Shown here piece by piece: positions 22,665 through 63,078 of a stretch of DNA of 64,000 nt; the stretch's first letter is position 1, and every line of letters begins with the position of its first letter. The stretch covers positions 22,565 through 86,564 of the forward strand of contig JACPNJ010000001.1 of NCBI GenBank assembly GCA_016185545.1, written 5' to 3'. Both the position numbers and the translations under genes were made by a program. The DNA is from Candidatus Yanofskybacteria bacterium. Its GTDB lineage: Bacteria; Patescibacteriota; Minisyncoccia; 2-02-FULL-40-12; IGHO2-01-FULL-4-A. The notes beneath the pieces are model-generated. The model was not told the DNA's origin, ran no database searches, and was given only the letters and a program-made list of their open reading frames with translations.

Positions 22665-22962
22665 CGCTCATCCCCTGCCAATTTTTATCAGGTGTCCTCG
22701 CAGTACAAATAATATGTTGATTTTCTCGTTTTTCTGTCAGGCGAAGTTTCTTGTGGGCGGTGCTTTAGCCCGCCCATAGAATCTCCTCTGATAAAAAAAT
22801 CGTACCCCTTACGCTCACCCAGCCCCACTTTTATTCTAAAAGTGGGGCTGGGTTCGCTCCGTCCCAATTTTCTTTATCAGCGAAAAACTTCAAAAATCAA
22901 CATTTATTTGTTACTACTCAAGCCAATTGATAAAAATTGACAGGGGCTCGCTCTAGTCTAAA
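22665..22962. mobile_element. MITE-like repeat family A, copy 1 (about 295 bp, TIR CCCCTGCCAATTTTTATCA, internal hairpin CCCAGCCCCACTTTT...AAAAGTGGGGCTGGG)
   Basis: Near-identical to 55015-55262 except for a 53-bp internal insertion and a different but still self-complementary central hairpin. The two ends are inverted repeats of each other. Confidence 0.5.
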
Positions 22963-23116
22963 ATTCAGCTTTTTCAAGTTTTTTATGCAAGATGTCTTGT
23001 CAGAATACCACACGCTATTGACACGCTATAGGTCTATATGCTAACCTATTTTTGATGCTAGGGAGTCTAAAAAGCTCCGGCAGGTTGATCTTTTACAATT
23101 GACTACGGAGGGGATA

Positions 23117-23794
23117 ATGAAAATAAAACATAATAGCGGAAGATATGAGTTAGTTGATAGAAATTCAAAAAAGTTTTGGGAAGCAACTTGGAAAGATAAA
23201 AAGGTAACCGTTCGCTTCGGGAGAATAGGAACGGTTGGACAAACTTTACGAAAAACTTTTTTTAATGACGTGTCTGCTAATAGTTATTTTCACGACAAAA
23301 TTGAGGAAAAATGTCGAAAAGGATATAAGCTTGTAGGCACTGCGACTTATCCTCAAAGTGATTCCAATTCCCTGGTAATCTGCCATTCATATGTTGGGGA
23401 GCATACTGAGGAGGTAGCCAAGGGATTATGTCGGTGGCTTACGAAATGTTTAAAGAAAAAAATGCCCGTCATAGAGTTCGAGAAGATTTGGATGGAATTC
23501 AGGGAAAACGATGAAGGAGCAAAAGCAGTTCCCGGCTTTACGATTGTATATGGAGAAAAAGAATACTGGTCAGATAATCTTGATTTTTCAGAAGACCTTG
23601 TTCTCGACAGTATATACAAAAAAGCCGTAGAGAAGGGGGCGGACAGGTTCATCACCTTCAACAGCAATGGTTTTACCGATATTGTGGCAATACGCGGAAA
23701 ACCGACGCCACGGGAAATTGCCACCTTGGTTCTGGGTTCAGAAGAAAATGCTAGATATCAGATCGAAGAAGACGTGACTGGTGTATTAAGTTAA
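23117..23794 (+). CDS. WGR-domain protein (hypothetical)
   Basis: N-terminal 'KFWEATWKDKKVTVRFGRIGTVGQTLRKTF' is a WGR signature (W-G-R with conserved spacing). GGAGGGG RBS before the ATG at 23117. C-terminal 150 aa are unassigned. Confidence 0.5.
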   Translation: MKIKHNSGRYELVDRNSKKFWEATWKDKKVTVRFGRIGTVGQTLRKTFFNDVSANSYFHDKIEEKCRKGYKLVGTATYPQSDSNSLVICHSYVGEHTEEVAKGLCRWLTKCLKKKMPVIEFEKIWMEFRENDEGAKAVPGFTIVYGEKEYWSDNLDFSEDLVLDSIYKKAVEKGADRFITFNSNGFTDIVAIRGKPTPREIATLVLGSEENARYQIEEDVTGVLS

Positions 23795-23819
23795 AATATT
23801 TCTAACAATTAGGTCGAGC

Positions 23820-23843
23820 AGAGCGAAGAATCGCTCTTTTTTA
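23820..23843 (+). terminator. rho-independent terminator after the WGR gene
   Basis: AGAGCGA-AGAA-TCGCTCT hairpin plus T6. A second hairpin (CCCAGCCGTAGTTTT...AAACTACGGCTGGG) lies at 23901-23935. Confidence 0.45.
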
Positions 23844-23964
23844 TTTGTTTGTCCGCACACAGCGAATCGAGTCCTATCAAAAATTACAAACCCTAATCCC
23901 AGCCGTAGTTTTAGCAAAAACTACGGCTGGGTGATTTTTATCACTTCGATAATGAATTACTGCT

Positions 23965-24135
23965 AAAAATTAGAGCGAGGCCATTATGCCTCATAGCACC
24001 GTCAAAAGAGTGGATTGCACGGTTTGCGAGCAGTACAATAGTAAAGCACTGCGAGCAAAATCCACGCTTTTGACGGAATGCAGAATTCTCGCTGGGAATT
24101 CAAATGGTGATAGGAGGCATAATGGCGAGCGGATA
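23965..24135. mobile_element. MITE-like repeat family B, copy 1 (about 170 bp, TIR GCGAGGCCATTATGCC / GGCATAATGGCGAGC, long internal hairpin)
   Basis: Second copy at 53378-53548 with the same termini and the internal CCGTCAAAAGAGTGGATT / AATCCACGCTTTTGACGG inverted pair. Confidence 0.5.
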
Positions 24136-26170: not shown

Positions 26171-26356
26171 TTATAGCAAACCCAAATATTATGTCAATTG
26201 TTTGTGGATAACCAAAATACTGAGAATAACTCGGTTTTTTTACTCCCAGGGGGTGGGGAATTAAAAGACAAAGTGTTAGATATTTTTGGAAATTTCTGGA
26301 GTTTCTATAAATAAGCTCTAGAAATGAGCCATAGCAATAACTGATGCCTTTCTTTA

Positions 26357-27160
26357 CTTAGAGGCTCAGCCTCTAAGTAACCAACAACTTACAATTTTTG
26401 CCGAGACACCTCGGCTTTTATTTTACTTTCGCCGCACAGGTTACTTAGAGGTTGAGCCTCTAAGTAACCTGTGCTATAAGTTTAATCTATGAGAAAACTT
26501 CAATTTGAAAATGGAGAGTTTTATCACATATACAACCGGGGCAACAATAAAAGGCCTATTTTTATGAAATCTTTTGATTTGCAGAGATTTTTGCAAAGTA
26601 TGATTGAATTCAATGTAGATGGACCAATCGGAAGTATTTATGCCGTTTCTTTCAACAAAGAATCACTTAGAGGCTCAGCCTCTAAGTCGAGACGACCAGT
26701 TGATATTGTTTGTTATTGCCTAAATCCTAACCATTTTCATCTTTTAGTTAGACAGTTGGAAAACGATGGAATTAAGAATTTTATGCATAAATTAGGAACT
26801 GGATATACAATGTATTTTAATAATAAACACGAATTGAACGGTGGACTTTTTCAGGGGAGATATAAAGCAATTCACATAGATACAAATGATTATCTGTTGT
26901 ATTTAAGCGCTTATATCAATTTAAATCCTGAAGCCCATCAACTTAGAGGCTCAGCCTCTAAGTTGTGCCAATCAAGTTGGAATGAATATATCGGTGATAA
27001 ATCTAGCAAGGGTAAATTGTGCAATACCAGGATTGTATTGTCGCAGTTTGAAACCGTGGAGGGTTATAAAAAATTTGCCGAAAAGGCGCTCGGGGTGATT
27101 ATAGAGAAAAAAGAGATGGAAGAATCCCTGAAGCTTTTACTTAGAGGCTGAGCCTCTAAG
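26357..27160. repeat. REP-like 21-bp palindrome CTTAGAGGCT(C/G)AGCCTCTAAG, five copies (26357-26377, 26444-26464, 26666-26686, 26942-26962, 27140-27160)
   Basis: Exact or 1-mismatch copies read from the sequence. Copies 3 and 4 lie in frame inside the RAYT ORF (LRGSASK). Copy 5 contains the ORF's TGA stop. Confidence 0.7.
26489..27151 (+). CDS. REP-associated tyrosine transposase (RAYT) / IS200-like HuH Y1 transposase
   Basis: 'GEFYHIYNRGNNKRPIF' N-terminal RAYT motif, HuH motif 'NHFHLLV' and catalytic tyrosine context 'GGLFQGRYKA'. Confidence 0.75.
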   Translation: MRKLQFENGEFYHIYNRGNNKRPIFMKSFDLQRFLQSMIEFNVDGPIGSIYAVSFNKESLRGSASKSRRPVDIVCYCLNPNHFHLLVRQLENDGIKNFMHKLGTGYTMYFNNKHELNGGLFQGRYKAIHIDTNDYLLYLSAYINLNPEAHQLRGSASKLCQSSWNEYIGDKSSKGKLCNTRIVLSQFETVEGYKKFAEKALGVIIEKKEMEESLKLLLRG

Positions 27161-27294
27161 TGGCTATGGGCGCTTGCTTGGCGCTTTAAATTTTGTTATT
27201 ATTCTCAGCATGTCAGAAGTTAGTAGTACAACCCCGTTAGATATTTACGTTGTTAAGCAAACTAACGAGGTTAAATCGGGCATATTGTTAATTT

Positions 27295-28047
27295 ATGGAA
27301 ACCGCGACAAAACAATCTATATCTAACGGGGCAGGCCAATTTTTGCCGGCTTATGAAGATATGGTTAAATCCGGAATGCATTTTGGGCGGAAAAAGACGA
27401 TTTTTCATCCCAATATGAAGCCCTACGTCTATACACTCAAGGACAATATCTATATTTTGGATTTGATTAAAACGACCGATTCGCTTATTAAAGCTATAGA
27501 TTTTCTGAAAAAAGCAATTGTCGAAGGCAAAATGATTTTATTTGTCGGTTTGACCAAGCAGTCAGCTGAAACGACTAGAACAGCCGCCGAAGCATTAAGT
27601 ATGCCTTACGTTATAAATCGCTGGTTAGGCGGGACGCTGACCAACTTCAAAACCATTATTGGTCGGGTAAAGTATCTGGAAGATCTTGAAAAAAAGCAGA
27701 CAGATGATGGTTTTGAAGGATTTACTAAAAAAGAGAAGATATTAAAAGAAAGAGAAATCGCCGCCTTGCGGCTTAAATTTGACGGTATTCGCAAGCTGAC
27801 TCGCGTACCCGATATCATATTTATTACTTCGCTCAAAGAGAGCCAGTTACCCGTGCGTGAAGCCAAAAGAGCGGGGGTTAAGGTGGTAGGCATAGTGAAT
27901 ACGGACAGTGATCCCAAACAGATAGATTATCCGATTGTGGCGAATGACAATTCCAAGAAATCGGTGGAGTTGATATTGGAAGCAGTCAGGAAAGGAACTT
28001 CTGGCTACGAAGGTACGAATAAATACGAAAATACGAATGATTTGTAA
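27295..28047 (+). CDS. rpsB: 30S ribosomal protein S2
   Basis: 'MVKSGMHFGRKKTIFHPNMKPYVY', 'LFVGTKKQ'-like 'LFVGLTKQS' and 'VVGIVNTDSDP'; conserved S2 blocks. Confidence 0.85.
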   Translation: METATKQSISNGAGQFLPAYEDMVKSGMHFGRKKTIFHPNMKPYVYTLKDNIYILDLIKTTDSLIKAIDFLKKAIVEGKMILFVGLTKQSAETTRTAAEALSMPYVINRWLGGTLTNFKTIIGRVKYLEDLEKKQTDDGFEGFTKKEKILKEREIAALRLKFDGIRKLTRVPDIIFITSLKESQLPVREAKRAGVKVVGIVNTDSDPKQIDYPIVANDNSKKSVELILEAVRKGTSGYEGTNKYENTNDL

Positions 28048-40120: not shown

Positions 40121-42163
40121 TTACTTGAGTGTCCAGATTTTGTTGTCCGTGGATAGAATCCAAACCGTGCCGTCGGAGGAGACGGATATATCTTGAGGTG
40201 TGCCGACAGCTTCTAGTTTATAAGTTGTTTTAAGTTCGCCTGTTGTTTTATCAAAAATATAAACTCTTTTGTTTGTCTTATCGGCCAGAAAGAGGAAAGC
40301 CGAGTCCTTGAAAGTGAAAATGCGGCTGTCTGACGCAGGAATAAGCCGCAAATCCAATTCGCCGGTTTTTTTGCCCTTAAAGTATAATATCAGTTTGCCA
40401 TTGTCCGCAAGCGCGTAAATATTGCCGTCAGCGGTTATGGATGTCAGATTACCGCTTGCATTGTCGCTGGTCCAGATTGTACGCTTCGTTCCGCCAGTTA
40501 CTGCGTCGGCATATTTATATATTGTTTTATCGGAAAGAATATAAAGATTATTTTCGTATAAGATAGCGTCTATAGCGGATACCGGTTCTTTAAGAGTGTA
40601 CTGCTCAATTTTTTTGGATTTCAAATCATAGATGCCGAAGGCGTCAGAACCGTTGAAGACGGAGGCAAATGATGATGAAGTATATAGAAATTGTGGTGTA
40701 ATCTTGAATTGGCCTAACTGTGAAACTTCATTTTGATTGACATTGAAAATTAGGCCAATAATATCGATTATGCTGATAAGACCGTCATAAGCTGACACGA
40801 AACTAACCTTGAGATTGCTGTTTTGAGCCGATATGTCCGCGAAAAGCGTTGGTTGTTTATCGCTAACGCGATCAAGGTCATCCAAAGTTTGATTTATTTG
40901 TAATTTAATATTTTCGGCTTTTTTGTCTGAAAAACTGGCTAAACTTGCCAAGGATGCCTGAAGCAGTGTCCGAGCGTCTTTAAAATTGCTTTGGTTAAGC
41001 CATGATTGCGCCAGTTTAACATTTTCGCCTGCTTGTTTTATGGTGTTCCTGTTTTCATTTGAAATTCCTCCGGTTTTCCATAAAACAAAAATTAAAACGG
41101 GAAAAATAATGATCGCGGAAACTAGAATAAAACCACGCCGGCGCGCGCGTTCTCCCAATTTGCCAGTAGAAATCAGTTTACGGAGACCTTTTATAACCGG
41201 AGTTAAAATCGTTTCTCTTTTACTTACTAAAAATTCAGCGGGTATAATACGTGATTGTTCCATTTCTGGACTTTCCGGGCCGGTTCCTTGGTCCGCGACC
41301 GTAATTTCGGGTATTTGATCAGGGACATCTTGGGGTTTGCCGCTATTCAGTCTGATTTGAGACGGTTGTTTTGTATTCTGAGACTCTAGCGGAGCTTCCG
41401 GCTCCGTTTCCTTTTCCTTGTTGTCGTTTGGTGTCCTAGTTTTAAAAGTTGATTTGGTATAAGTTGCTGATGATACGGGTATTTCTTTAACCTCATGCAT
41501 ATCTATATGAACACCGCAGCAGGAAAAATTAGTTGTATTGGTAGCCAAATGTGCTATTTTTTGGCCAAATTCTTCCTGGTTTTCCTTGATGAAAATTCCA
41601 TTAAGTTGTTTTTCCCTTGATGTCAGCGACCTTGATGGAAAGTAAGCGAATATTTTGTCTTTTGACTGAACTTTACCGGAAATAATATTTGAAAACTGCT
41701 TTTCGCCCTCGGCATCCTTACTGAATAATTCAACATTATTGAGTATGTCTATATATTTACCGTTGCGAGCCAAGGCAATTTTGAATTTACCCAAACGCGA
41801 AATGTAAATATTTTCGCCTGAAATTGCGGCCAAGCCGATATTCAGTTTAAAATTATTGTTTTGGAAAAAATCATCCAAAACCTCATTAAGCTTTTTTAGA
41901 GTGCGCTCGAAAGCGCTTTTAGCATTTTGTTCCCGTAACGATATGTCTGAATAATATTCTCTTTTTGCCAAAGACGAAATTAAACTTATCGTGTAAGAAA
42001 GATCCTCTTGAGAATATTTGATGTGGCCCAAAACAAAGAGCGAGCCAAGCATTTTTTCCTGATTCCCGGCGCCTTGATATGCTAAAACATCAAAATGAAC
42101 ATTATCCTCGCCGCTTTTGTAGATAAGCTCTTTGATAGCAGGTTTTAAAGTAATTTTTTCCAT
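40121..42163 (-). CDS. membrane-anchored hypothetical protein with C-terminal beta-propeller-like repeats
   Basis: Cytoplasmic about 330-aa N-terminal domain, one TM helix ('FILVSAIIIFPVLIFVLW') and a C-terminal region of repeated 'DG.IY.L.D.K.I' strands (PQQ/WD-like). Confidence 0.4.
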   Translation of the reverse strand: MEKITLKPAIKELIYKSGEDNVHFDVLAYQGAGNQEKMLGSLFVLGHIKYSQEDLSYTISLISSLAKREYYSDISLREQNAKSAFERTLKKLNEVLDDFFQNNNFKLNIGLAAISGENIYISRLGKFKIALARNGKYIDILNNVELFSKDAEGEKQFSNIISGKVQSKDKIFAYFPSRSLTSREKQLNGIFIKENQEEFGQKIAHLATNTTNFSCCGVHIDMHEVKEIPVSSATYTKSTFKTRTPNDNKEKETEPEAPLESQNTKQPSQIRLNSGKPQDVPDQIPEITVADQGTGPESPEMEQSRIIPAEFLVSKRETILTPVIKGLRKLISTGKLGERARRRGFILVSAIIIFPVLIFVLWKTGGISNENRNTIKQAGENVKLAQSWLNQSNFKDARTLLQASLASLASFSDKKAENIKLQINQTLDDLDRVSDKQPTLFADISAQNSNLKVSFVSAYDGLISIIDIIGLIFNVNQNEVSQLGQFKITPQFLYTSSSFASVFNGSDAFGIYDLKSKKIEQYTLKEPVSAIDAILYENNLYILSDKTIYKYADAVTGGTKRTIWTSDNASGNLTSITADGNIYALADNGKLILYFKGKKTGELDLRLIPASDSRIFTFKDSAFLFLADKTNKRVYIFDKTTGELKTTYKLEAVGTPQDISVSSDGTVWILSTDNKIWTLK

Positions 42164-42360
42164 CCCGTACGAAGTAGCTGCTACGCAGTTGTAAGTATAA
42201 GTTATATGCGCAGAAATACTATTATTATTTTCTTATCGTCCCGCTCGTTTAACCCTTTAGGGCTACTTCGTTCGGGATCCGTTCATTGACATTGCCAATC
42301 CGATTTACTAGTCTAGTAGATGTTAATATCTACTTATCATTTTAGTTTTTAATTATAAAC

Positions 42361-43153: not shown

Positions 43154-43228
43154 GGGCTCGTAGTTCAGGGGCAGAACGTCCGATTCACATTCGGAAGGTC
43201 AGAGGTTCAAATCCTCTCGAGCCCACCA
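43154..43228 (+). tRNA. tRNA-Val (anticodon CAC)
   Basis: Acceptor GGGCTCG/CGAGCCC, anticodon stem-loop TCCGA-TTCACAT-TCGGA, T-arm AGAGG-TTCAAAT-CCTCT, CCA encoded. Confidence 0.8.
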
Positions 43229-43265
43229 AAACAAATACGCCACCTAGGTGGCGTATTTGTTTTGG
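43229..43265 (+). terminator. rho-independent terminator after tRNA-Val
   Basis: AAACAAATACGCCACC-TAGG-TGGCGTATTTGTTT followed by TGG. Confidence 0.5.
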
Positions 43266-43618
43266 TGGTGATGTTGATAACTTGTATACATTAATTTTGG
43301 CTTTGTAAATGTAATTTCGGAAAATATGTTAAAAATCGGCTAGAATAGGCGATTTTTTGTGATTGTGTCAAATATAGAATTGACGCTAAAGTTATGCACA
43401 TTGCATAGTATTGCGGTACTGGAATTGGGTGGTATATAATGAAGGTAAAGTGTAAGAAAGTGGATAATAGTGTTAATAACTAAGGCAAATCGTTGATAAA
43501 CTTTCAAAAAGAATCCGGTACTGATATATTGGTTTGGTTGAATTATCGAAATGTTTGATAAGCCCACAATATTTCCCGCCATTTACACATATTCATGTAG
43601 TGTCAAAATTTTAGCCAT

Positions 43619-44053
43619 ATGTTTATCGGAGAATACAAACATATAATTGATGCCAAAAAACGGCTTGCGATTCCGGTTAAATTCAGAAAAGAACTTGGCG
43701 ATAGGATAGTGTTAACCAGGGGATTGGACGGCTGTTTATTTATTTTCCCAATGAAAGAATGGGAGCAATTGGCTGAAAAACTCGGCAAGTTGCCGTTCGG
43801 CCAGCAAGATTCAAGAGGTTTTGCGAGATTACTGCTGGCGGGTGCTTCGGAAGTGGAATTTGATCAGCTCGGGAGAATATTAGTTCCGGATTTCTTAAAA
43901 GGTTATGCCGTATTAAAAAAGGAAGTGGTAATTGCCGGTCTTTTCAATAAATTGGAAATCTGGGATGAAACACGCTGGTCAAATTACAAAGCAAATCTTG
44001 AAAAGAACAGCGACAGGATAGCGGAGAAGTTGGGGGAGCTGGGAATAATATAA
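43619..44053 (+). CDS. mraZ: transcriptional regulator MraZ
   Basis: 'MFIGEYKHIIDAKKRLAIPVKFRKEL' with duplicated MraZ half-domains. Confidence 0.85.
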   Translation: MFIGEYKHIIDAKKRLAIPVKFRKELGDRIVLTRGLDGCLFIFPMKEWEQLAEKLGKLPFGQQDSRGFARLLLAGASEVEFDQLGRILVPDFLKGYAVLKKEVVIAGLFNKLEIWDETRWSNYKANLEKNSDRIAEKLGELGII

Positions 44054-45021
44054 TGCATAAACCGGTTCTTCTAAAAGAGATCGTAGAATGTTTAAATCCC
44101 AAACCGGGCCAGAAGTTTATTGACGCAACAATTAACGGGGGAGGGCACGCGATGGCGATATTGGAAATGATTTTGCCTGATGGAAAATTGTTGGGGATAG
44201 AATGGGATGGCGAGTTGCTAAAACAGTTAATAATTAAAAAGCAAGATTTAGGAATTAAGGACGAAAATTTAATTTTAATAAATGACAGTTATGTAAATTT
44301 AAAAAAGATTGCCGAAGAAAATGATTTTACAGATGCAAACGGAATTCTTTTTGATCTTGGAATGTCAAGTTGGCAGATCGAAGAAGCGGGGAGAGGATTT
44401 ACATTTATGAAAGACGAGCCGTTGGATATGCGCTTTGCATATCCAAACATTAACCATCAGCCATCGACTGCCAGCCCTACAACAGCAGAAGAAATTGTTA
44501 ATCGCTATTCGTATGATGAATTGGTAAAAATATTGAAGGAATACGGGGAGGAAAGATTTGCCAGATTAATCGTTGCCAATATTATCAATGCCAGAAAGCG
44601 AAAACCGATAAAAACCACCTTTGAGCTGGTAGAAATTATTAAAAAATCAGTGCCATTTTGGTATCGTTCCGACCGTCGACGATTACATTTTGCCACTAAA
44701 ACCTTTCAGGCCTTGAGGATCGCCGTAAATGACGAGCTGGAAAATTTAAAATCAGGACTCGAGCAAGGGATGGAAATTTTGAAAGTCGGCGGCAGAATCG
44801 CGGTTATATCATTTCATTCTTTGGAAGACCGCGCGGTCAAGAATTTTTTTAGAGCAAAAGCTAAAGAAAAAATCCTGAAAATAATTACCAAAAAACCAAT
44901 TAACGCCGAGCTTGCGGAAATAATCAAAAACCCGCGGGCTAGAAGCGCGAAATTAAGAATAGCCGAGAAAGAGTCCCGTACGAGACAGGTGATGCTCTCT
45001 GAGCATTACCGTATTAAATAA
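44053..45021 (+). CDS. rsmH: 16S rRNA (cytosine1402-N4)-methyltransferase
   Basis: 'HKPVLLKEIVECLNPKPGQKFIDATINGGGHA' and 'LFDLGMSS' motifs. Confidence 0.85.
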   Translation: MHKPVLLKEIVECLNPKPGQKFIDATINGGGHAMAILEMILPDGKLLGIEWDGELLKQLIIKKQDLGIKDENLILINDSYVNLKKIAEENDFTDANGILFDLGMSSWQIEEAGRGFTFMKDEPLDMRFAYPNINHQPSTASPTTAEEIVNRYSYDELVKILKEYGEERFARLIVANIINARKRKPIKTTFELVEIIKKSVPFWYRSDRRRLHFATKTFQALRIAVNDELENLKSGLEQGMEILKVGGRIAVISFHSLEDRAVKNFFRAKAKEKILKIITKKPINAELAEIIKNPRARSAKLRIAEKESRTRQVMLSEHYRIK

Positions 45022-45106
45022 ATTGTCCCGAAAAAGAAAGCTGGATTTACTTGCTTGATTCAGTTTTGAATCTAAGCTCTGGCTGTCTCGTTCGGGATTC
45101 AGATAA

Positions 45107-55579: not shown

Positions 55580-56963
55580 GTTTTTTGACTAGCGGGCCGT
55601 AGTTGGTATCTTCAATCTCGTAGCCGAGGTTTTTTATTTGGTCGCGGAGTTGGTCGGAGTGGATGAAGTCCTTGGCTTGGCGAATGGTTTCGCGCTCGCT
55701 TATTAGTTTTTGTATCTCCGGCGGTATTTCTTGTGATTTTTTAGGAATGATACTGAGAATTTGATCAAATTCATTTAGCATTTCCAAAGATTTTTTTGCA
55801 TCTTCACTGCTGATTTTTCTTTCATCAATCAACGGATTTACTTCTCTTACAAAATCAAACAAAGACGCAATTGCTTTGGGAGTATTAAAATCATCATCCA
55901 TTTCTTTTTCAAAATTTTCCTTTATTTTTTCAATCAATTCCAACTTAGGAGTTGAACTCCTAAGTAGAGATTTTTCAATATTTTTTAGGCGATTAGTAAA
56001 TTCGGCTAAACGATTTACTGCTGCCTCGGTTTGTCTCAGGTTTTCTTCGCTGTAATCAATAGGAGAGCGATAATAAGCCATCAGTATCATCATGCGTAAA
56101 GCTTCGGCTGGATATTTTTTTAAGGCGTCGCGTATTGTTATGAAATTGCCTAGCGACTTGGACATTTTTTGGCCACTGACGGTTAAAAATCCAGGGTGTA
56201 TCCAGTATTTGACGAATGGTTTTTTGCCGGAAATTGATTCCATTTGGGCAATTTCGGCTTCATGGTGTGGAAATATCAGATCTTGTGCGCCGCCATGCAG
56301 GTCGTATTGGAAACCGAAATGTTTTTCAGTCATAGCGGTATCTTCAATGTGCCACCCTGGACGGCCATAGCCAAGCTCGCTATTCCAACCCGGTTCCTCC
56401 AGCTTAGAAAATTTCCACAAGGCAAAATCGCCGCGATTTCTTTTTTTTATGCTTTCATCAATGCGGCTGACTGCATCTTCCGCTGATTGTGTTGTCCGTC
56501 CCGACAGTTTGCCGTAATCAGGAAATTTGACCAGGTCAAAATAATAACCGTCATCTTCGATGAGATAGGCGATACCCTTTTCAATCAGTTGTTTTACTTG
56601 GCTAACAATTTCCGGAATATATTGAGTTGCCGGAGCGTATTCCGAAACCGCAGTGATGCCGAGGGATTTCATGTCCTCGTAATATGCTTCTTTATATTCC
56701 AGCGCTAAATCAGCCGGATTAATCATTTTTTGTTTGGCCCGCTCAATAATTTTATCGTCAATGTCGGTAATGTTTTGCAGATAAAAAACTTCGTAGCCGC
56801 GATGCCGCAGATATTTGGCGACAACGTCAAAAACAACATAGGTTCTGGCATGGCCTATGTGCGAATAATCATAAACCGTTGGTCCGCAGACGAACATCCT
56901 GACTTTTGAGCCGGGTGAGAGAAATTCTTCTTTTTGGCGAGCTAGAGTATTATAGATTTGCAT
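55566..56963 (-). CDS. cysS: cysteine--tRNA ligase
   Basis: 'CGPTVYDYSHIGHAR' HIGH motif, 'KMSKSLGN' and zinc-binding Cys. Confidence 0.9.
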   Translation of the reverse strand: MQIYNTLARQKEEFLSPGSKVRMFVCGPTVYDYSHIGHARTYVVFDVVAKYLRHRGYEVFYLQNITDIDDKIIERAKQKMINPADLALEYKEAYYEDMKSLGITAVSEYAPATQYIPEIVSQVKQLIEKGIAYLIEDDGYYFDLVKFPDYGKLSGRTTQSAEDAVSRIDESIKKRNRGDFALWKFSKLEEPGWNSELGYGRPGWHIEDTAMTEKHFGFQYDLHGGAQDLIFPHHEAEIAQMESISGKKPFVKYWIHPGFLTVSGQKMSKSLGNFITIRDALKKYPAEALRMMILMAYYRSPIDYSEENLRQTEAAVNRLAEFTNRLKNIEKSLLRSSTPKLELIEKIKENFEKEMDDDFNTPKAIASLFDFVREVNPLIDERKISSEDAKKSLEMLNEFDQILSIIPKKSQEIPPEIQKLISERETIRQAKDFIHSDQLRDQIKNLGYEIEDTNYGPLVKKLASP

Positions 56964-59159: not shown

Positions 59160-59171
59160 AAAATATCATGG

Positions 59172-59248
59172 ATCCCGTTAGAAGTCTCGCTCGCCAAGTC
59201 TGACTTGGCGAGTCCGTAGGACCTTGGCGGGGCTACTTCTAACGGGAT
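59172..59248. repeat. GC-rich palindrome family D copy filling the hrcA-grpE intergenic region
   Basis: ATCCCGTTAGAAGTCTCGCTCGCCAAGTCTGACTTGGCGAG...CTTCTAACGGGAT, which shares the GCCAAGTCTGACTTGGC core with 51707-51723. Confidence 0.45.
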
Positions 59249-59711
59249 GGAAGATAAAAATCAAAATAATATAAATTCGGATAGTTCTAAACCTGATTTA
59301 TCCGAGGAGTACCTGAATAACTGGAAGCGAGAGCGGGCGGATTTTATAAATTATAAAAAGGATGAAGCGCAAAGAATGGGGGAGTTCGTTAAATTTGCCA
59401 ATGAAAGTTTAATTTTGGAATTGTTGGATATCGTGGATGATTTGTATCTGGCCGCCAAGCAGGCAAAAAACGCCGGTTTAGACCAAGTTATTAAAAAGTT
59501 TGAGGATTTCTTAAAAAAATATGGAGTTGAGAAAATTAAGGTAAGCGATCCCGTAAAGTCGCCTGATGGCGACAACGGGGCAAGCAAATTTGACCCGATG
59601 ACACAAGAAATTGTTGAGGGAGCGGATGGGGAAAAAATAGAAGAAGTCAGGGCCGGCTATATGATGCATGGGAGAATCATTAGACCGACACGCGTTAAAA
59701 TAATAAAATAA
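59247..59711 (+). CDS. grpE: nucleotide exchange factor GrpE
   Basis: '[41 protein letters not shown]' GrpE long-helix region plus beta-domain. Carries the in-frame palindromic insert at 59547-59586. Confidence 0.8.
59547..59586 (+). repeat. in-frame GC-rich palindromic insert (family E) in grpE, encoding [15 protein letters not shown]
   Basis: CCCGTAAAGTCGCC-TGAT-GGCGACAACGGGG dyad. Two nearly identical copies in dnaK (60208-60249, 61573-61610). Confidence 0.6.
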
Positions 59712-59889
59712 TTTGATCGGGTCTAACCGAAGCATACCTCAGGCACGCTTCGCCGCTCCAGCGGCGGCTTCGCTATTTCGTCTCGCGGATTTAATTTTTG
59801 ATGAAAGATATATTTTATCAAAAATTAACCAAGCAATCCGTTCGTCGGAATGCCTGGAGCATGCCTCTGTTAGACCCCTAAATAATACT

Positions 59890-61887
59890 ATGCCTAAAGT
59901 TTTAGGGATTGATCTGGGAACTACAAATAGCGCGATGGCGATTGTGGAAATAGGTCAGCCGAGGGTATTGGAGAATAAAGAGGGGATGAGAACTACACCT
60001 TCGGTGGTTGCCGTTGGTAAAAACGGCGAGCGTTATGTGGGTGTGACCGCCAAGCGCCAAGCTGTGACCAATCCAGCCAATACTATTTTTTCCGTAAAGC
60101 GACTTATAGGGCGCCGGTTTTCAGATACCGAAGTTCAGCATGATAAACAACTTTTGTCTTACGAAATACGCGAGGGATCAAACAATGATGTTGAAATCAA
60201 GATGGGAGACCCCGTAAAATCGCCTGGTGGCGATAACGAGACAGGCAAGTGGCATAAGCCGGCGGAGATTTCAGCGATGATTTTGCAAAAACTTAAAGCT
60301 GATGCTGAAGATAAGCTGGGTGAAAAAATTACCGATGCCATTATCACGGTGCCGGCGTATTTTGACGATTCACAGCGTAAAGCCACGAAAGACGCAGGCG
60401 AAATTGCAGGACTCAACGTTAAGCGCGTCATCAACGAGCCGACGGCGGCCGCTCTTGCCTATGGTTTCAACAAGAAAAAAGACGAAAAAATTGTAGTTTA
60501 TGACTTTGGCGGCGGGACTTTTGACGTTTCAGTGCTTGAAGTTTCCGAAGATACAATAGAGGTTAAAGGTACGGGTGGTGATACCCATTTAGGCGGCGAT
60601 GATCTTGACCAGCGAATTATCCAGTATTTGATAGACGAATTTAAAAAAGAGCAGGGCGTTGATGTGAGCAAAGACCAATTGGCTGTACAGCGGCTCAAAG
60701 ATGCGGCCGAGAAAGCCAAGCACGAACTGTCCAGCACAATGCAAACCGAAGTAAATATTCCTTTCCTGACCGCGGACGCCAGCGGCCCGAAGCACTTTTC
60801 AATGACATTTACGCGGGCCAAGCTGGAAGATTTGGTTAAGGATTATATTGATAAATCAATTGAACTGACCGGGAAAACCGTAAAAGAAGCCGGGCTTAAG
60901 CTTTCTGATATCAATGAGGTAATCTTGGTAGGCGGACAAACCAGAATGCCGGCCATAATTGAAGCGGTTAAAAAATTATTCGGCAAAGAACCGCACAAAG
61001 ATATAAATCCTGATGAAGTTGTAGCGGTTGGTGCGGCTATTCAAGGAGGTATAATGCTGGGCGATATACGCGATGTATTACTGCTTGATGTCACCCCGCT
61101 TTCGCTTGGTATTGAAACGCTTGGCGGAGTAATGACTAAAATGATAGAAAAAAACACTACCGTGCCGACCGCCAAAACCCAAACATTCTCAACTGCCGCT
61201 GACAATCAACCGTCAGTTGAGATACATGTCTTGCAAGGCGAGCGAGCGATGTCAACGGACAACAAAACGCTTGGTAAGTTTATACTTGATGGTATACCCC
61301 CGGCTCCCCGAGGTGTGCCGCAAGTTGAGGTTACTTTTGATATTGATGCCAATGGTATACTGAATGTCAAAGCTAAAGACAAGGCTACAAACAAGGAACA
61401 GTCAATCAGAATCGAGGGGTCGTCTGGCTTAACTGACGATGAAAAGAAAAAAATGACCGCTGATGCGGAGAGATTTGCCGTTGAGGATGCGAAAAAGAAA
61501 GAATTGGTAGATGCCCGCAACATGGCGGAAACGCTTGTTTATTCAACGGAAAAAGCATTGAGAGATATTGGTGACCCCGTAAAATCGCCTGACGGCGATA
61601 ACGGGGCAAGTAAAATTAGCGCTGAGGAACGCAAAAATATTGAGGATAAAGTTGCAGCATTGAAGGATGCCCAGAAAAGCGAGGATGTTGGCACGATTAA
61701 AAAAGCCACGGAAGAATTGTCCGCGGCGGCACAAAAAATAGGGGAGGTGTTGTATAAACAAGCAACTCCGAAAAGTGGCGATGCCACCTCGGGGCAAGCA
61801 GGCGAGCAAAAAACGGCCGCCGAAGGCGAGCCGCGCCCTGCTGGGCGGGAAGAGAAAAAAGATGAGGGGGAACAGAAAGCGGAGTGA
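59890..61887 (+). CDS. dnaK: molecular chaperone DnaK (Hsp70)
   Basis: '[18 protein letters not shown]', '[17 protein letters not shown]', '[13 protein letters not shown]' and the substrate-binding domain. Start trimmed to the ATG at 59890. Two in-frame 14-15-aa inserts ([15 protein letters not shown]; [15 protein letters not shown]). Confidence 0.9.
60208..60249 (+). repeat. in-frame palindromic insert (family E) in dnaK nucleotide-binding domain
   Basis: GACCCCGTAAAATCGCCTGGTGGCGATAACGAGACAGGCAAG; falls where E. coli DnaK has the short loop 'GQKMAPPQ'. Confidence 0.6.
61573..61610 (+). repeat. in-frame palindromic insert (family E) in dnaK C-terminal lid
   Basis: GACCCCGTAAAATCGCCTGACGGCGATAACGGGGCAAG; the encoded peptide is identical to the grpE copy. 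Confidence 0.6.
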
Positions 61888-61920: not shown

Positions 61921-63078
61921 ATGTCGAGTATTAACGACTTTTATACAACTCTTGGAGTATCGAAGAGCGCTTCGCAGGAGGAGATAAAAAGGGCCTATCG
62001 CAAGCTGGCTCACCAGCATCATCCTGATAAGCAAGGCGGAGATGAGAAAAAGTTCAAGGAGATAAATGAGGCCTACCAGGTGCTTTCCGACCCCAAGAAA
62101 CGTTCACAATATGACCAGTTCGGTTCCGTGCCGCCTGGCGGTTTTGGTTCCCAAGGATTCGGCGGTTTCGGCGGAAGAGGATTTGATGGTTTTGATTTTT
62201 CGCAGGGATTCGGCGGATTTAGGCAGGGTCAACAGTTTGATTTTGAAGATATTTTTGACATGTTCGGCGATGTTTTCGGTGGTCAGTTCGGTAGAGCGCG
62301 TGGACGAGCCCGACAGGCACAGGAGGAATCAAGTGGTAGTGATATTAGAATCAATCTGACATTGAGTTTGCATGATGTAGCACGCGGCGCGACAAAACAA
62401 ATTGAATTATCAAAGGATATTGTCTGTCCTGAATGTGGTGGTAGCGGCGCAGAAAAGGGAAGCGGTTTAACCGATTGTTCGGTTTGCGTCGGCAAGGGCG
62501 AGGTTAGAGAAACCACGACATCATTTTTTGGCAATATAACCAGAGTTTCTACTTGCAATATTTGTCGGGGTAGCGGCAAGGTGCCAAAAAATAACTGCCA
62601 TGCTTGCAAGGGCGAGGGCAAGAAGCGCGAAAAGAAAACCATTGAGTTTGATATTCCCGCCGGCATAAATGACGGCGAGGCGTTTATAATCAAGGGTGAG
62701 GGTCAGGCCGGTTTTCGTGGTAAAAGACCCGGTAATCTTTATATTCAGGTCAGCGTTGAGCCGGATAAAAGATTTAAGCGTGTCGGTAATGACATAATCT
62801 ATGAAATGCCGGTTAAAATGACTGATGCAATTCTCGGGGCGCGCTTGCCGGTATTGACGTTGGATGGAGAAAAAGAAATTGATATTCCGGCTGGCGTCCA
62901 AAATGGCGAGCAGTTGCGCCTCAAAGGTCTGGGCGTGCACACGTCCTCCGCCGGGGGCTTTGGAGTGCGCAGTGGGCAGCATAAAGGCGACCAGATAGTT
63001 AAAATTAAAATTGAAACCCCGCAGAAATTAAACAGTAAAGCCAAAAAACTTGTTGAGGAATTGGCGGGGGAGGTTTAG
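61921..63078 (+). CDS. dnaJ: molecular chaperone DnaJ
   Basis: J-domain '[32 protein letters not shown]', G/F region and four CxxCxGxG zinc repeats. Confidence 0.85.

Follow-up and report, generated by a model that had tools for sequence, protein, structure and literature searches.

We describe here a hairpin of 36 nucleotides (nt) that lies in frame, three times over, in two essential chaperone genes of a Candidatus Yanofskybacteria bacterium, an ultra-small member of the Patescibacteria, within a 64,000-nt stretch of contig JACPNJ010000001.1 that we refer to throughout as the window. The hrcA-grpE-dnaK-dnaJ operon spans 58.4-63.1 kb of the window, and the three repeats, one in grpE and two in dnaK, are probably copies of a non-autonomous hairpin-forming mobile element of Paceibacteria/Yanofskybacteria that spreads by a mechanism we infer below. 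The core conclusion, that this is a selfish, mobile, in-frame hairpin element, is well supported by the sequence comparisons. The element evidently enters coding genes with no duplication of the target, in nearly every case just 3' of GGN GAY (Gly-Asp), and its constant orientation and codon phase evidently give the host protein a 12-residue, Pro/Gly/Asp/Ser-rich surface loop with which it stays functional. To all appearances copies have been gained independently across lineages and genes, and perhaps also precisely lost, and sub-families that keep the stem by compensatory changes have evidently spread to new sites as resident copies decay. The two host genes, the three copies and a candidate fourth are as follows.

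59247..59711, forward strand: grpE, host gene (Pfam GrpE, E = 1.4e-19)
59890..61887, forward strand: dnaK, host gene, whose product equals P0001, 'MAG: molecular chaperone DnaK [Candidatus Yanofskybacteria bacterium]' (MAG, metagenome-assembled genome)
59547..59588, forward strand: copy 1, in grpE, GATCCCGTAAAGTCGCCTGATGGCGACAACGGGGCAAGCAAA, with the inserted bases at ~59550-59585, between GAT and AAA
60208..60249, forward strand: copy 2, at dnaK site 1, GACCCCGTAAAATCGCCTGGTGGCGATAACGAGACAGGCAAG, its outer stem decayed from GGGG to GAGA
61573..61614, forward strand: copy 3, at dnaK site 2, GACCCCGTAAAATCGCCTGACGGCGATAACGGGGCAAGTAAA, the best-preserved hairpin of the three
61764..61802, forward strand: a diverged relative and candidate fourth copy, where DnaK has its disordered C-terminal tail (covariance model 22.5 bits)

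The 36-mer hairpin, a GC-rich imperfect palindrome, is written in short form as CCCCGTAAAATCGCC. The inserted unit of 36 nt adds 12 residues, and all three window copies are in frame. A preliminary description of this DNA had the copies starting at 59547, 60208 and 61573 and coding in frame for (S/G)DPVKSP(D/G)GDN(G/E)(A/T)(S/G)K; these starts and the reading frame hold for each copy, with ends that we find at 59588, 60249 and 61614 and a peptide that, divided from its flanks, reads (G/S)D-PVKSP(D/G)GDN(G/E)(A/T)(S/G)-K. The nucleotide identity of 85-95% given there is too high, since the pairwise values counted on the alignment are 88%, 83% and 81% over 42 nt, and 75-83% over the 48 nt that include the flanks. 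The chance expectation of the 38-mer, estimated from shuffles, is 0.00, and no additional copy is present within the 64-kb window at up to eight mismatches. Copy 1 carries a compensatory change in its inner stem from A:T to G:C (AAAGTCGCC...GGCGACAA), which is also seen in the relative L009. We rate the fourth copy at 61764-61802 as tentative because its DNA fold is no better than that of shuffled sequences (z = -0.1). It shares the stem/bulge/stem architecture of the 36-mer, with changed pairs, the covariance model gives it a rough E of 1e-4 to 8e-6, and the reading frame at its 3' foot CGGGGCAAG is shifted by one and gives SGQA; it is present in the DnaK proteins P0003, P0005 and P0006 and missing from the closest relatives, P0002 and P0004.

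In the hairpin, an outer stem of 6 bp (CCCCGT/ACGGGG) is separated by an AAA/A internal loop from an inner stem, also of 6 bp (ATCGCC/GGCGAT), which is capped by a loop of 4 nt. As single-stranded DNA, copies 1, 2 and 3 fold with energies of -10.5, -6.5 and -11.7 kcal/mol and with z-scores against shuffles of -3.7, -2.3 and -4.6, the grpE copy and the dnaK site-2 copy being the stable ones. Among 16 distinct aligned copies with 12 stem pairs, 95.8% of the stem cells are paired and four of the 12 pairs have changed on both sides, values that are matched by 0-1 of 500 shuffles. In one sub-family, PAKSPSGDSGAS, a T:A pair has become C:G through a pair of non-synonymous substitutions, one from GTA to GCA and the other from AAC to AGC; this sub-family occupies dnaK site 2 in L010 and L011 and is found at site 1 in L015, where it has decayed with a 3-nt deletion, and its presence at two dnaK sites therefore indicates that it moved as a sub-family. 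L014 has the stem TCATC/GATGA, with two compensated pairs that turn SP to SS and GD to DD, and L006 has the variant TCACC/GGTGA. Other copies have decayed in place, including the window copy at 60208 (outer stem) and those of L013 (inner stem lost), L015 at site 1 (the deletion) and L016. Selection apparently acts on the stem rather than the peptide, and upkeep of the stem together with decay of residents is the pattern expected if the hairpin serves its own spreading and not the host.

The stem changes bear directly on an explanation in which the repeat is an ancient or convergent peptide module common to GrpE and DnaK, for example an interaction or phosphorylation motif KSPDGD. Such a module would be consistent with three near-identical peptides in exposed loops of two interacting proteins, but the compensatory changes alter the peptide (V to A together with N to S, SP to SS together with GD to DD) and preserve the stem, and a related family described below reads the 3' foot in another frame (SGQA). 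The distribution of the element in relatives, to which we now turn, leaves this explanation effectively refuted.

A scan of 185,579 genomes, one per species, with the core pattern matched two, L001 and L002. The element of L001 lies in a secD-PPIase gene. That of L002 (Ca. Paceibacteria) lies in grpE at a second position, site B, and not at the position used in the window (site A), and both dnaK sites of this genome are empty, reading MGD^KW (GGC GAT^AAA) and AGD^KI (GGC GAC^AAA). A metagenome scan with a pattern in which Pro, Val, Ser, Pro and Gly could each be spelled by any of their synonymous codons returned seven contigs, all with the same codons, CCC GTA AAA TC(G/A) CC(T/C/A), and with the element in secD-PPIase, pheT, a 2-hydroxyacid dehydrogenase gene and, in L009, grpE at the window's own site. 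A further copy lies in the cysS gene of L015; the window's cysS is empty. This brings the number of distinct insertion sites to eight, spread over six gene families: two in grpE (A and B), two in dnaK (1 and 2), and one each in secD-PPIase, pheT, cysS and the dehydrogenase. The preliminary description had held that the identity between copies goes beyond what convergent protein evolution would give, and the recovery of canonical codons only by a codon-degenerate scan agrees with that view. It had also named two outcomes that would count against recent insertion, namely an ancient loop conserved in close relatives and a lack of other copies; copies were found in grpE site B, secD-PPIase, pheT, cysS and 2-hydroxyacid dehydrogenase, and close relatives are mostly empty, with the same codons where they are filled.

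Among the 40 closest DnaK proteins (77-93% identical), 36 are empty at site 2, including the closest of all, P0002 (93% identical), and the site is filled only in P0001, P0047, P0021 and P0028. L002, L013-L016 and L018 have empty alleles at site 2, of the form GGC GAC^AAA or close to it. At site 1, five of the 40 have recognisable relatives of the element and others have shorter or decayed inserts, and grpE site A is filled in L009 and empty in nine other GrpE orthologues. In a neighbour-joining tree of 120 DnaKs built with the insert columns removed, each of the four site-2 carriers falls in a lineage of its own, and each of these lineages has a sister in which the site is empty. The carriers' dnaK genes are 74-78% identical at the DNA level and the 150 nt on each side of site 2 are 57-77% identical, as compared with 86-100% for the 42-nt element, which is the same at all 42 positions (42/42) in L010 and L011. 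Because presence is patchy and the element is more alike than the dnaK sequence that flanks it, an old conserved loop is excluded, and the fixed synonymous codons and the empty sister lineages speak in the same way against a peptide module. Diverged dnaK flanks around a near-identical element also argue against transfer along with flanking gene sequence. A scan of viral contigs for the 36-mer gave 0 matches, so there is no sign of phage carriage. When a 30-aa alignment of the insert was used as a profile against 1.84 billion representatives, no match reached E <= 0.001, a setting in which the 15-residue motif is too short, and no candidates came from a word-index search of proteins with a tandem peptide as the query.

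Two further explanations can be considered in the light of this distribution. The first is that the hairpin is a host-selected cis-acting signal in the mRNA or DNA of the heat-shock operon (a stabiliser, an RNase or pause site, a thermosensor or a protein-binding site) that regulates expression of the Hsp70 system. There is some attraction to this, in that the three or four copies and two intergenic palindromes all lie in hrcA-grpE-dnaK, the stem is kept by compensatory and even non-synonymous changes, and two genomes have been hit in grpE at two different sites. However, the element is also in secD, pheT, cysS and the dehydrogenase gene, most close relatives, the closest included, have no element in dnaK, resident copies decay as listed above, and Rfam has no family that matches the region at gathering threshold; we regard a cis-acting role as quite improbable. 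The second is an artefact of assembly or binning, such as chimeric reads that make repeated palindromes. The window does derive from a metagenome-assembled genome, but the in-frame element recurs in independent NCBI, ENA, JGI and Logan assemblies from different samples and assemblers, and the open reading frames (ORFs) remain intact, and we give an artefact virtually no credence.

Comparison of filled and empty alleles places the 36-nt insertion directly after GGN GAY, without duplication of the target. Of the 18 listed copies, 17 have GAC as the 5' flank and one, the window's grpE copy, has GAT; in most of the listed copies this GAY is preceded by GGN. The 3' flank is variable (AAA, AAG, AAT, AGC, GAA, ACA, TCT or GGT). 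Deviating flanks are those of pheT (TTA GAC^) and of the dehydrogenase gene (CTG GAC^...TCT). At all eight sites the element is in the sense orientation and in one identical frame; by our own six-frame translation, four of its six possible phases are stop-free and two hold stop codons. The window holds 16 unoccupied GGNGAYAAR sites, six of them in frame as G-D-K, so the clustering of copies in the Hsp70 operon is not due to scarcity of targets. The GC skew is positive throughout the window, from which we infer that the operon is co-oriented with replication and that the top strand of the element would be the lagging-strand template.

The preliminary description had placed the inserts in surface loops, and by alignment with E. 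coli DnaK both DnaK copies do fall in loops. Site 1 is a clean 12-residue insertion between E. coli V105 and G107, in a beta-hairpin turn of nucleotide-binding subdomain IB, and site 2 is a clean 12-residue insertion between D555 and K556, in the loop that joins lid helices. The GrpE insert sits just ahead of the conserved FDP motif. In an AlphaFold2 model of DnaK made from 40 close homologues, the inserts (residues 107-118 and 564-573) are coil with a predicted local distance difference test (pLDDT) score <50 and lie between regular elements; the model is poor overall, with a mean pLDDT of 57.

The 36-mer has relatives of other sizes. A covariance model built on the 36-mer finds every known copy again, at 50-72 bits, and its weaker matches are the candidate at 61764-61802, a second family of 24 nt, and a palindrome at 51.6 kb. 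The 24-nt family, CCT TCG ACA GGC TCA GGG CAA GCT (PSTGSGQA), uses the same GD^K sites in other Paceibacteria, at dnaK site 2 in L017 (5603-5650 region) and at site 1 in L018 (4310-4350 region), and reads the common 3' foot CAGGGCAAG in another frame. This element or variants of it are seen in many DnaKs (P0022, P0026, P0030, P0079, P0084, P0088, P0094 and others). There are also longer palindromes in the window, and one of these lies close to a gene related to those for REP-associated tyrosine transposases (RAYTs), where REP stands for repetitive extragenic palindrome.

26354..27161, forward strand: RAYT-like Y1 (IS200-like) transposase gene (ORF 26489-27151) with REPs (PF01797, 32.9 bits, cutoff 23)
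27233..27335, forward strand: intergenic 'family D' palindrome, CCCCGTTAGAT...ATCTAACGGGGCAGG, 80 nt downstream of the RAYT-like gene
51624..51676, forward strand: intergenic 'family D' palindrome, CCCCGTTAGAGGC...GCCTCTAACGGGGCAGG
59164..59256, forward strand: related-foot palindrome in the hrcA-grpE spacer, GATCCCGTTAGAAGT...ACTTCTAACGGGATG, from just after ATG to the grpE start codon

With up to one mismatch, TAACGGGGCARG is seen five times in the window where 0.49 are expected, and 0 of 100 shuffles reach five. Two of the matches fall in 36-mers, and two more form the 3' foot of the family D palindromes between genes, at 27233-27335 and 51624-51676, which have CCCCGTTAGA as their 5' foot; the 36-mer foot is CCCCGT...TAACGGGGCARG. 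The palindrome at 51624-51676 matches the covariance model of the 36-mer weakly (13.7 bits, E = 0.12), and the REPs around the RAYT-like gene match it in the inner stem, TTAGAGGC. The palindrome at 59164-59256 is taken to be an insertion because the interval from the hrcA stop to the grpE start has only 4-7 bases, by our own count, in L010, L012, L015 and L018. In L009, grpE (ORF 544-1125) contains a 54-nt in-frame element, NPVKSGETGTAGQLFDGV, with the foot CCCCGTCAAAT...ATTTGACGGGG and the same frame (N-PVKS...). The preliminary description had linked the 36-mer to the family D palindromes and suggested one superfamily with intergenic and protein-intruding members, and the excess of TAACGGGGCARG, the 54-nt element with the same foot and frame, and the covariance-model matches all favour that proposal. 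A single modular superfamily, in which the foot CCCCGT...ACGGGGCARG is common to the 36-mer and to longer intergenic and in-frame palindromes, is thus supported.

Several other features of these palindromes can be noted. The 3' half of the one at 27233-27335 forms the first ~12 codons of the rpsB ORF (METATKQSISNGAGQF), and the rpsB start reads the palindrome foot as SNGAG, in the same frame as DNGAS of the 36-mer. The grpE gene of L010 (2592-3176) has a GC-rich palindromic insert of ~66 nt at site B, in frame, in a region with an RNA fold of -45 kcal/mol. A nested palindrome of 160 nt at 59719-59877 fills the grpE-dnaK spacer of the window, with an RNA fold of -68.7 kcal/mol and termini (GGGTCTAAC...GTTAGACCC) that are unlike the CCCCGT foot; this spacer is shorter in relatives, with 37-77 nt in L013 and L012. 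Palindromic elements of ~120-130 nt at 42162-42278 and 44971-45100, the second of which overlaps the 3' end of an rsmH-like ORF (44053-45021), have the termini TCCCGTACGA...TCGTTCGGGA and may be another branch with a CCCGT foot.

The RAYT-like gene is associated with REPs that are perfect 23-nt palindromes, ACTTAGAGGCTCAGCCTCTAAGT. Two lie upstream, two are in frame in the ORF (at 26665 and 26941, each read as LRGSASK), and one, at 27139, extends across the stop, with the TGA of the gene in the hairpin loop. The family has 3697 homologues under the E-value threshold, and among the 120 best listed, those matches with a named source are all from Patescibacteria-type MAGs. A second paralogue, P0130, is probably encoded on the same contig as the window, since its longest listed contig has the length (132,096 nt) that is also listed for the window's DnaK, P0001. 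The locus shows REP-type hairpins and a Y1 transposase that are active in this genome, and hairpins of this type that are evidently tolerated in frame. The two intragenic positions hold variable peptides in the 120 homologues that co-vary per gene (LRGSASK/LRGSASK, LSGSTTK/LSGSTTK, LRSSTPK/LRSSTPK), with an identical stretch of at least 5 aa in 37 of 116, which suggests concerted evolution or self-regulation. A palindrome related to these REPs, ACTTAGGAGTTGAACTCCTAAGT, is also in frame in the window's cysS at 55943-55965 (..SLLRSSTPK..); we did not count it among the insertions, since this CysS has the same length as that of a relative.

We propose, by analogy with IS200/IS605 and REP-RAYT systems, that the 36-nt hairpin would be the recognition structure for a trans-acting single-strand transposase of the HUH/Y1 type, either RAYT or IS200-like. 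The family of such enzymes is abundant in the clade and one member, with in-frame REPs, is in the window; this RAYT-like gene represents a candidate class of mobilising enzyme. Single-strand HUH-type transposition would deliver the element to the 3' side of GGNGAY with no target duplication, and insertion might take place where the sense strand of highly transcribed genes, co-oriented with replication, is transiently single-stranded. A codon-phased target, coding for G-D turns, together with purifying selection could then account for the use of one frame, since stop codons occur in two of the six phases. A more specific form of this model, which we regard as possible and put forward tentatively, is that the hairpins with the CCCCGT foot are 'intragenic REPs', the smallest known protein-invading mobile elements, driven by RAYT with a codon-phased Gly-Asp target. 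If so, transposition would itself be biased to surface loops of essential proteins, and there would be a widespread, previously unrecognised route of loop evolution in the streamlined genomes of Patescibacteria. A possible corollary is that the RAYT genes of the clade embed their own recognition hairpins in coding sequence for self-regulation.

Not all of the observations fit a transposed hairpin readily, and several weigh against it. The element is a single hairpin and does not have two distinct ends, and its copy number is low, with three or four copies per 64 kb and matches in two species-representative genomes and seven metagenome contigs. No transposase is tied to the 36-nt hairpin, for which the RAYT-like gene is only a candidate: the REPs that flank and invade the window's Y1_Tnp gene, ACTTAGAGGCTCAGCCTCTAAGT, differ in sequence from the 36-mer, although a palindrome with the CCCCGT foot lies 80 nt downstream, and tblastn of the window RAYT against the examined loci of relatives found no homologue, and hence no cognate transposase, near the other copies. 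Placement of the DnaK loops depends mainly on the alignment with E. coli DnaK, because the AlphaFold2 model is poor. The inserts are presumably translated, because all copies and decay products (36, 33, 24 and 54 nt) are multiples of three and stop-free in the host frame. Finally, the empty site GGCGAYAA is similar to the 3' arm of the element itself, GGCGATAAC, and repeated use of the two dnaK sites could stem from microhomology-driven copying.

This last point is central to the chief alternative, a transposase-free spread by short-patch gene conversion or template switching at microhomology (GGCGAY...AA), promoted by a hairpin that stalls replication. The empty sites GGC GAT AAA and GGC GAC AAA do resemble the arm GGC GAT AAC, the two dnaK sites have been reused by two different short families, and the three window copies lie within 2.1 kb, yet six other in-frame G-D-K sites are empty; the tblastn result given above also counts in its favour. 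However, the pheT (TTA GAC^) and dehydrogenase (CTG GAC^...TCT) copies are without GGCGAY/AAA microhomology, and the strict orientation and the stem covariation better fit structure-specific recognition. Furthermore, identical sub-family sequences occur in genomes in which dnaK is only ~76-78% identical, so that transfer between genomes, and not intragenomic conversion, would be needed. We therefore consider microhomology-driven spread rather unlikely and favor spread of the hairpin by transposition.

A mobile in-frame hairpin invites comparison with the Rickettsia palindromic elements (RPEs) of Ogata et al., and a resemblance to these was suggested in the preliminary description. The likeness stands at the level of function and not of family membership, because size and host phylum differ, as sequence presumably does too. 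RPEs are ~150 bp and frequently in frame (PMC10969869). Like the 36-mer, they are palindromic selfish repeats that are found in frame in unrelated housekeeping genes, with a conserved peptide in one frame and at positions compatible with the fold, and they also have non-coding occurrences, which for the 36-mer are represented by the related palindromes. The use of one fixed frame in unrelated ORFs at tolerated positions is as seen here, with eight sites in six gene families. In contrast, RPEs are ~100-150 bp long and belong to Rickettsia (Alphaproteobacteria), and this length and host are not those of the 36-mer, which is a single short hairpin of 36 nt (12 codons) in Patescibacteria and which, unlike RPEs, has an evident target preference (GGN GAY^) and recurrent use of the same sites. 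The 36-mer thus acts like RPEs but is four times shorter, is in a new phylum and has a clear target preference. To our knowledge, no transposase is known for RPEs, and selfish DNA inside essential genes is known mainly from Rickettsia, its mechanism having been unknown for 25 years.

REPs and REPINs, the substrates of RAYTs, are 20-40-nt imperfect palindromes that share with the 36-mer a conserved foot and the lack of terminal inverted repeats and target duplication. The 36-mer is likewise a short imperfect palindrome with a stable single-strand hairpin, and recognition of a single-stranded hairpin, as for REPs, is plausible by analogy. Classical REPs are extragenic, number hundreds of copies, are often paired as REPINs and have a GTAG or GGAG 5' tetranucleotide. 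The 36-mer, in contrast, is intragenic and in frame, with every copy found inside an ORF, far fewer copies than are typical of REP families, a CCCCGT foot (GAC CCCGT with its flank), and singletons throughout in place of inverted pairs. The TnpA protein of IS608 is hairpin-dependent, with a strand and orientation bias tied to single-stranded DNA. IS200/IS605 elements resemble the 36-mer in inserting 3' of a short specific sequence without target duplication, as in the comparison of GGC GAY^AAA with GGN GAC-[36 nt]-AAA, and in having imperfect hairpins, and the constant GGNGAY on the 5' side, the changing 3' flank and the one orientation of the 36-mer are in keeping with that mode of transposition, but they are much longer and have distinct left-end and right-end hairpins, whereas the 36-mer, known from sequence alone, is one hairpin in its entirety.

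Short GC-rich palindromic insertions in genes are also known as GC clusters and double-hairpin elements of fungal mitochondria and as the 'byp' elements of Magnusiomyces, and these fungal mitochondrial hairpin elements share with the 36-mer an AT-richer host genome and polymorphism of presence and absence. The byp elements are skipped by the ribosome and need no frame, whereas the 36-mer copies are all multiples of three and stop-free; we rejected translational bypass (byp or T4 gene 60-like), in which a stop codon typically comes after the take-off codon, since copies and decay products alike are in frame without stops. A classical miniature inverted-repeat transposable element, with terminal inverted repeats, target-site duplication and a length of ~50-500 bp, was rejected for the absence of duplication and the length of 36 nt. 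Integron attC sites have the order RYYYAAC...GTTRRRY, and were rejected because the order here, GTTAGA...TCTAAC, is the reverse. CRISPR repeats, which can have a similar 36-nt palindromic shape, were rejected because the copies do not form an array and lie in frame within conserved genes. Our literature searches found, among the papers available to us, no description of such elements in the Candidate Phyla Radiation (CPR)/Patescibacteria.

The 36-mer offers a far smaller, 12-codon, and simpler case of gene-dwelling selfish DNA, in an unrelated and uncultivated phylum. Its alleles with and without the insert are clear, its target motif is recognisable, compensatory stem changes mark its sub-families and a candidate enzyme family is encoded nearby; together these make the mechanism directly testable, and the element could serve as a tractable model of selfish DNA that invades essential genes. 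It suggests that mobile DNA can repeatedly remodel the surface loops of DnaK, GrpE, SecD and aminoacyl-tRNA synthetases in minimal genomes, and that inserts of this kind can mislead alignments, phylogenies and structure predictions of Patescibacteria marker proteins.

Three minor observations concern other parts of the window and of the operon. Several relatives have a conserved ORF of 262 aa between dnaK and dnaJ (L011 5949-6737, L012 5928-6716, L017 7538-8326 and L018 5921-6709), for which there is no Pfam match; the window is without it, passing from the stop of dnaK at 61887 to dnaJ at 61921. Palindromes at 43223-43268 and 53223-53250 have the common core ATACGCCACC...GGTGGCGTAT, with a tRNA gene immediately before one of them and the 5' end of a recR-like ORF close to the other, and may constitute another small repeat family. 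Two repeat blocks at 22672-24134 and 53377-55246, ~30 kb apart, are 75-97% identical in several segments, and both hold structured inverted repeats, for example GCCATTATGCC...GGCATAATGGC; one block adjoins dnaB and the other adjoins an ORF with a WGR domain.

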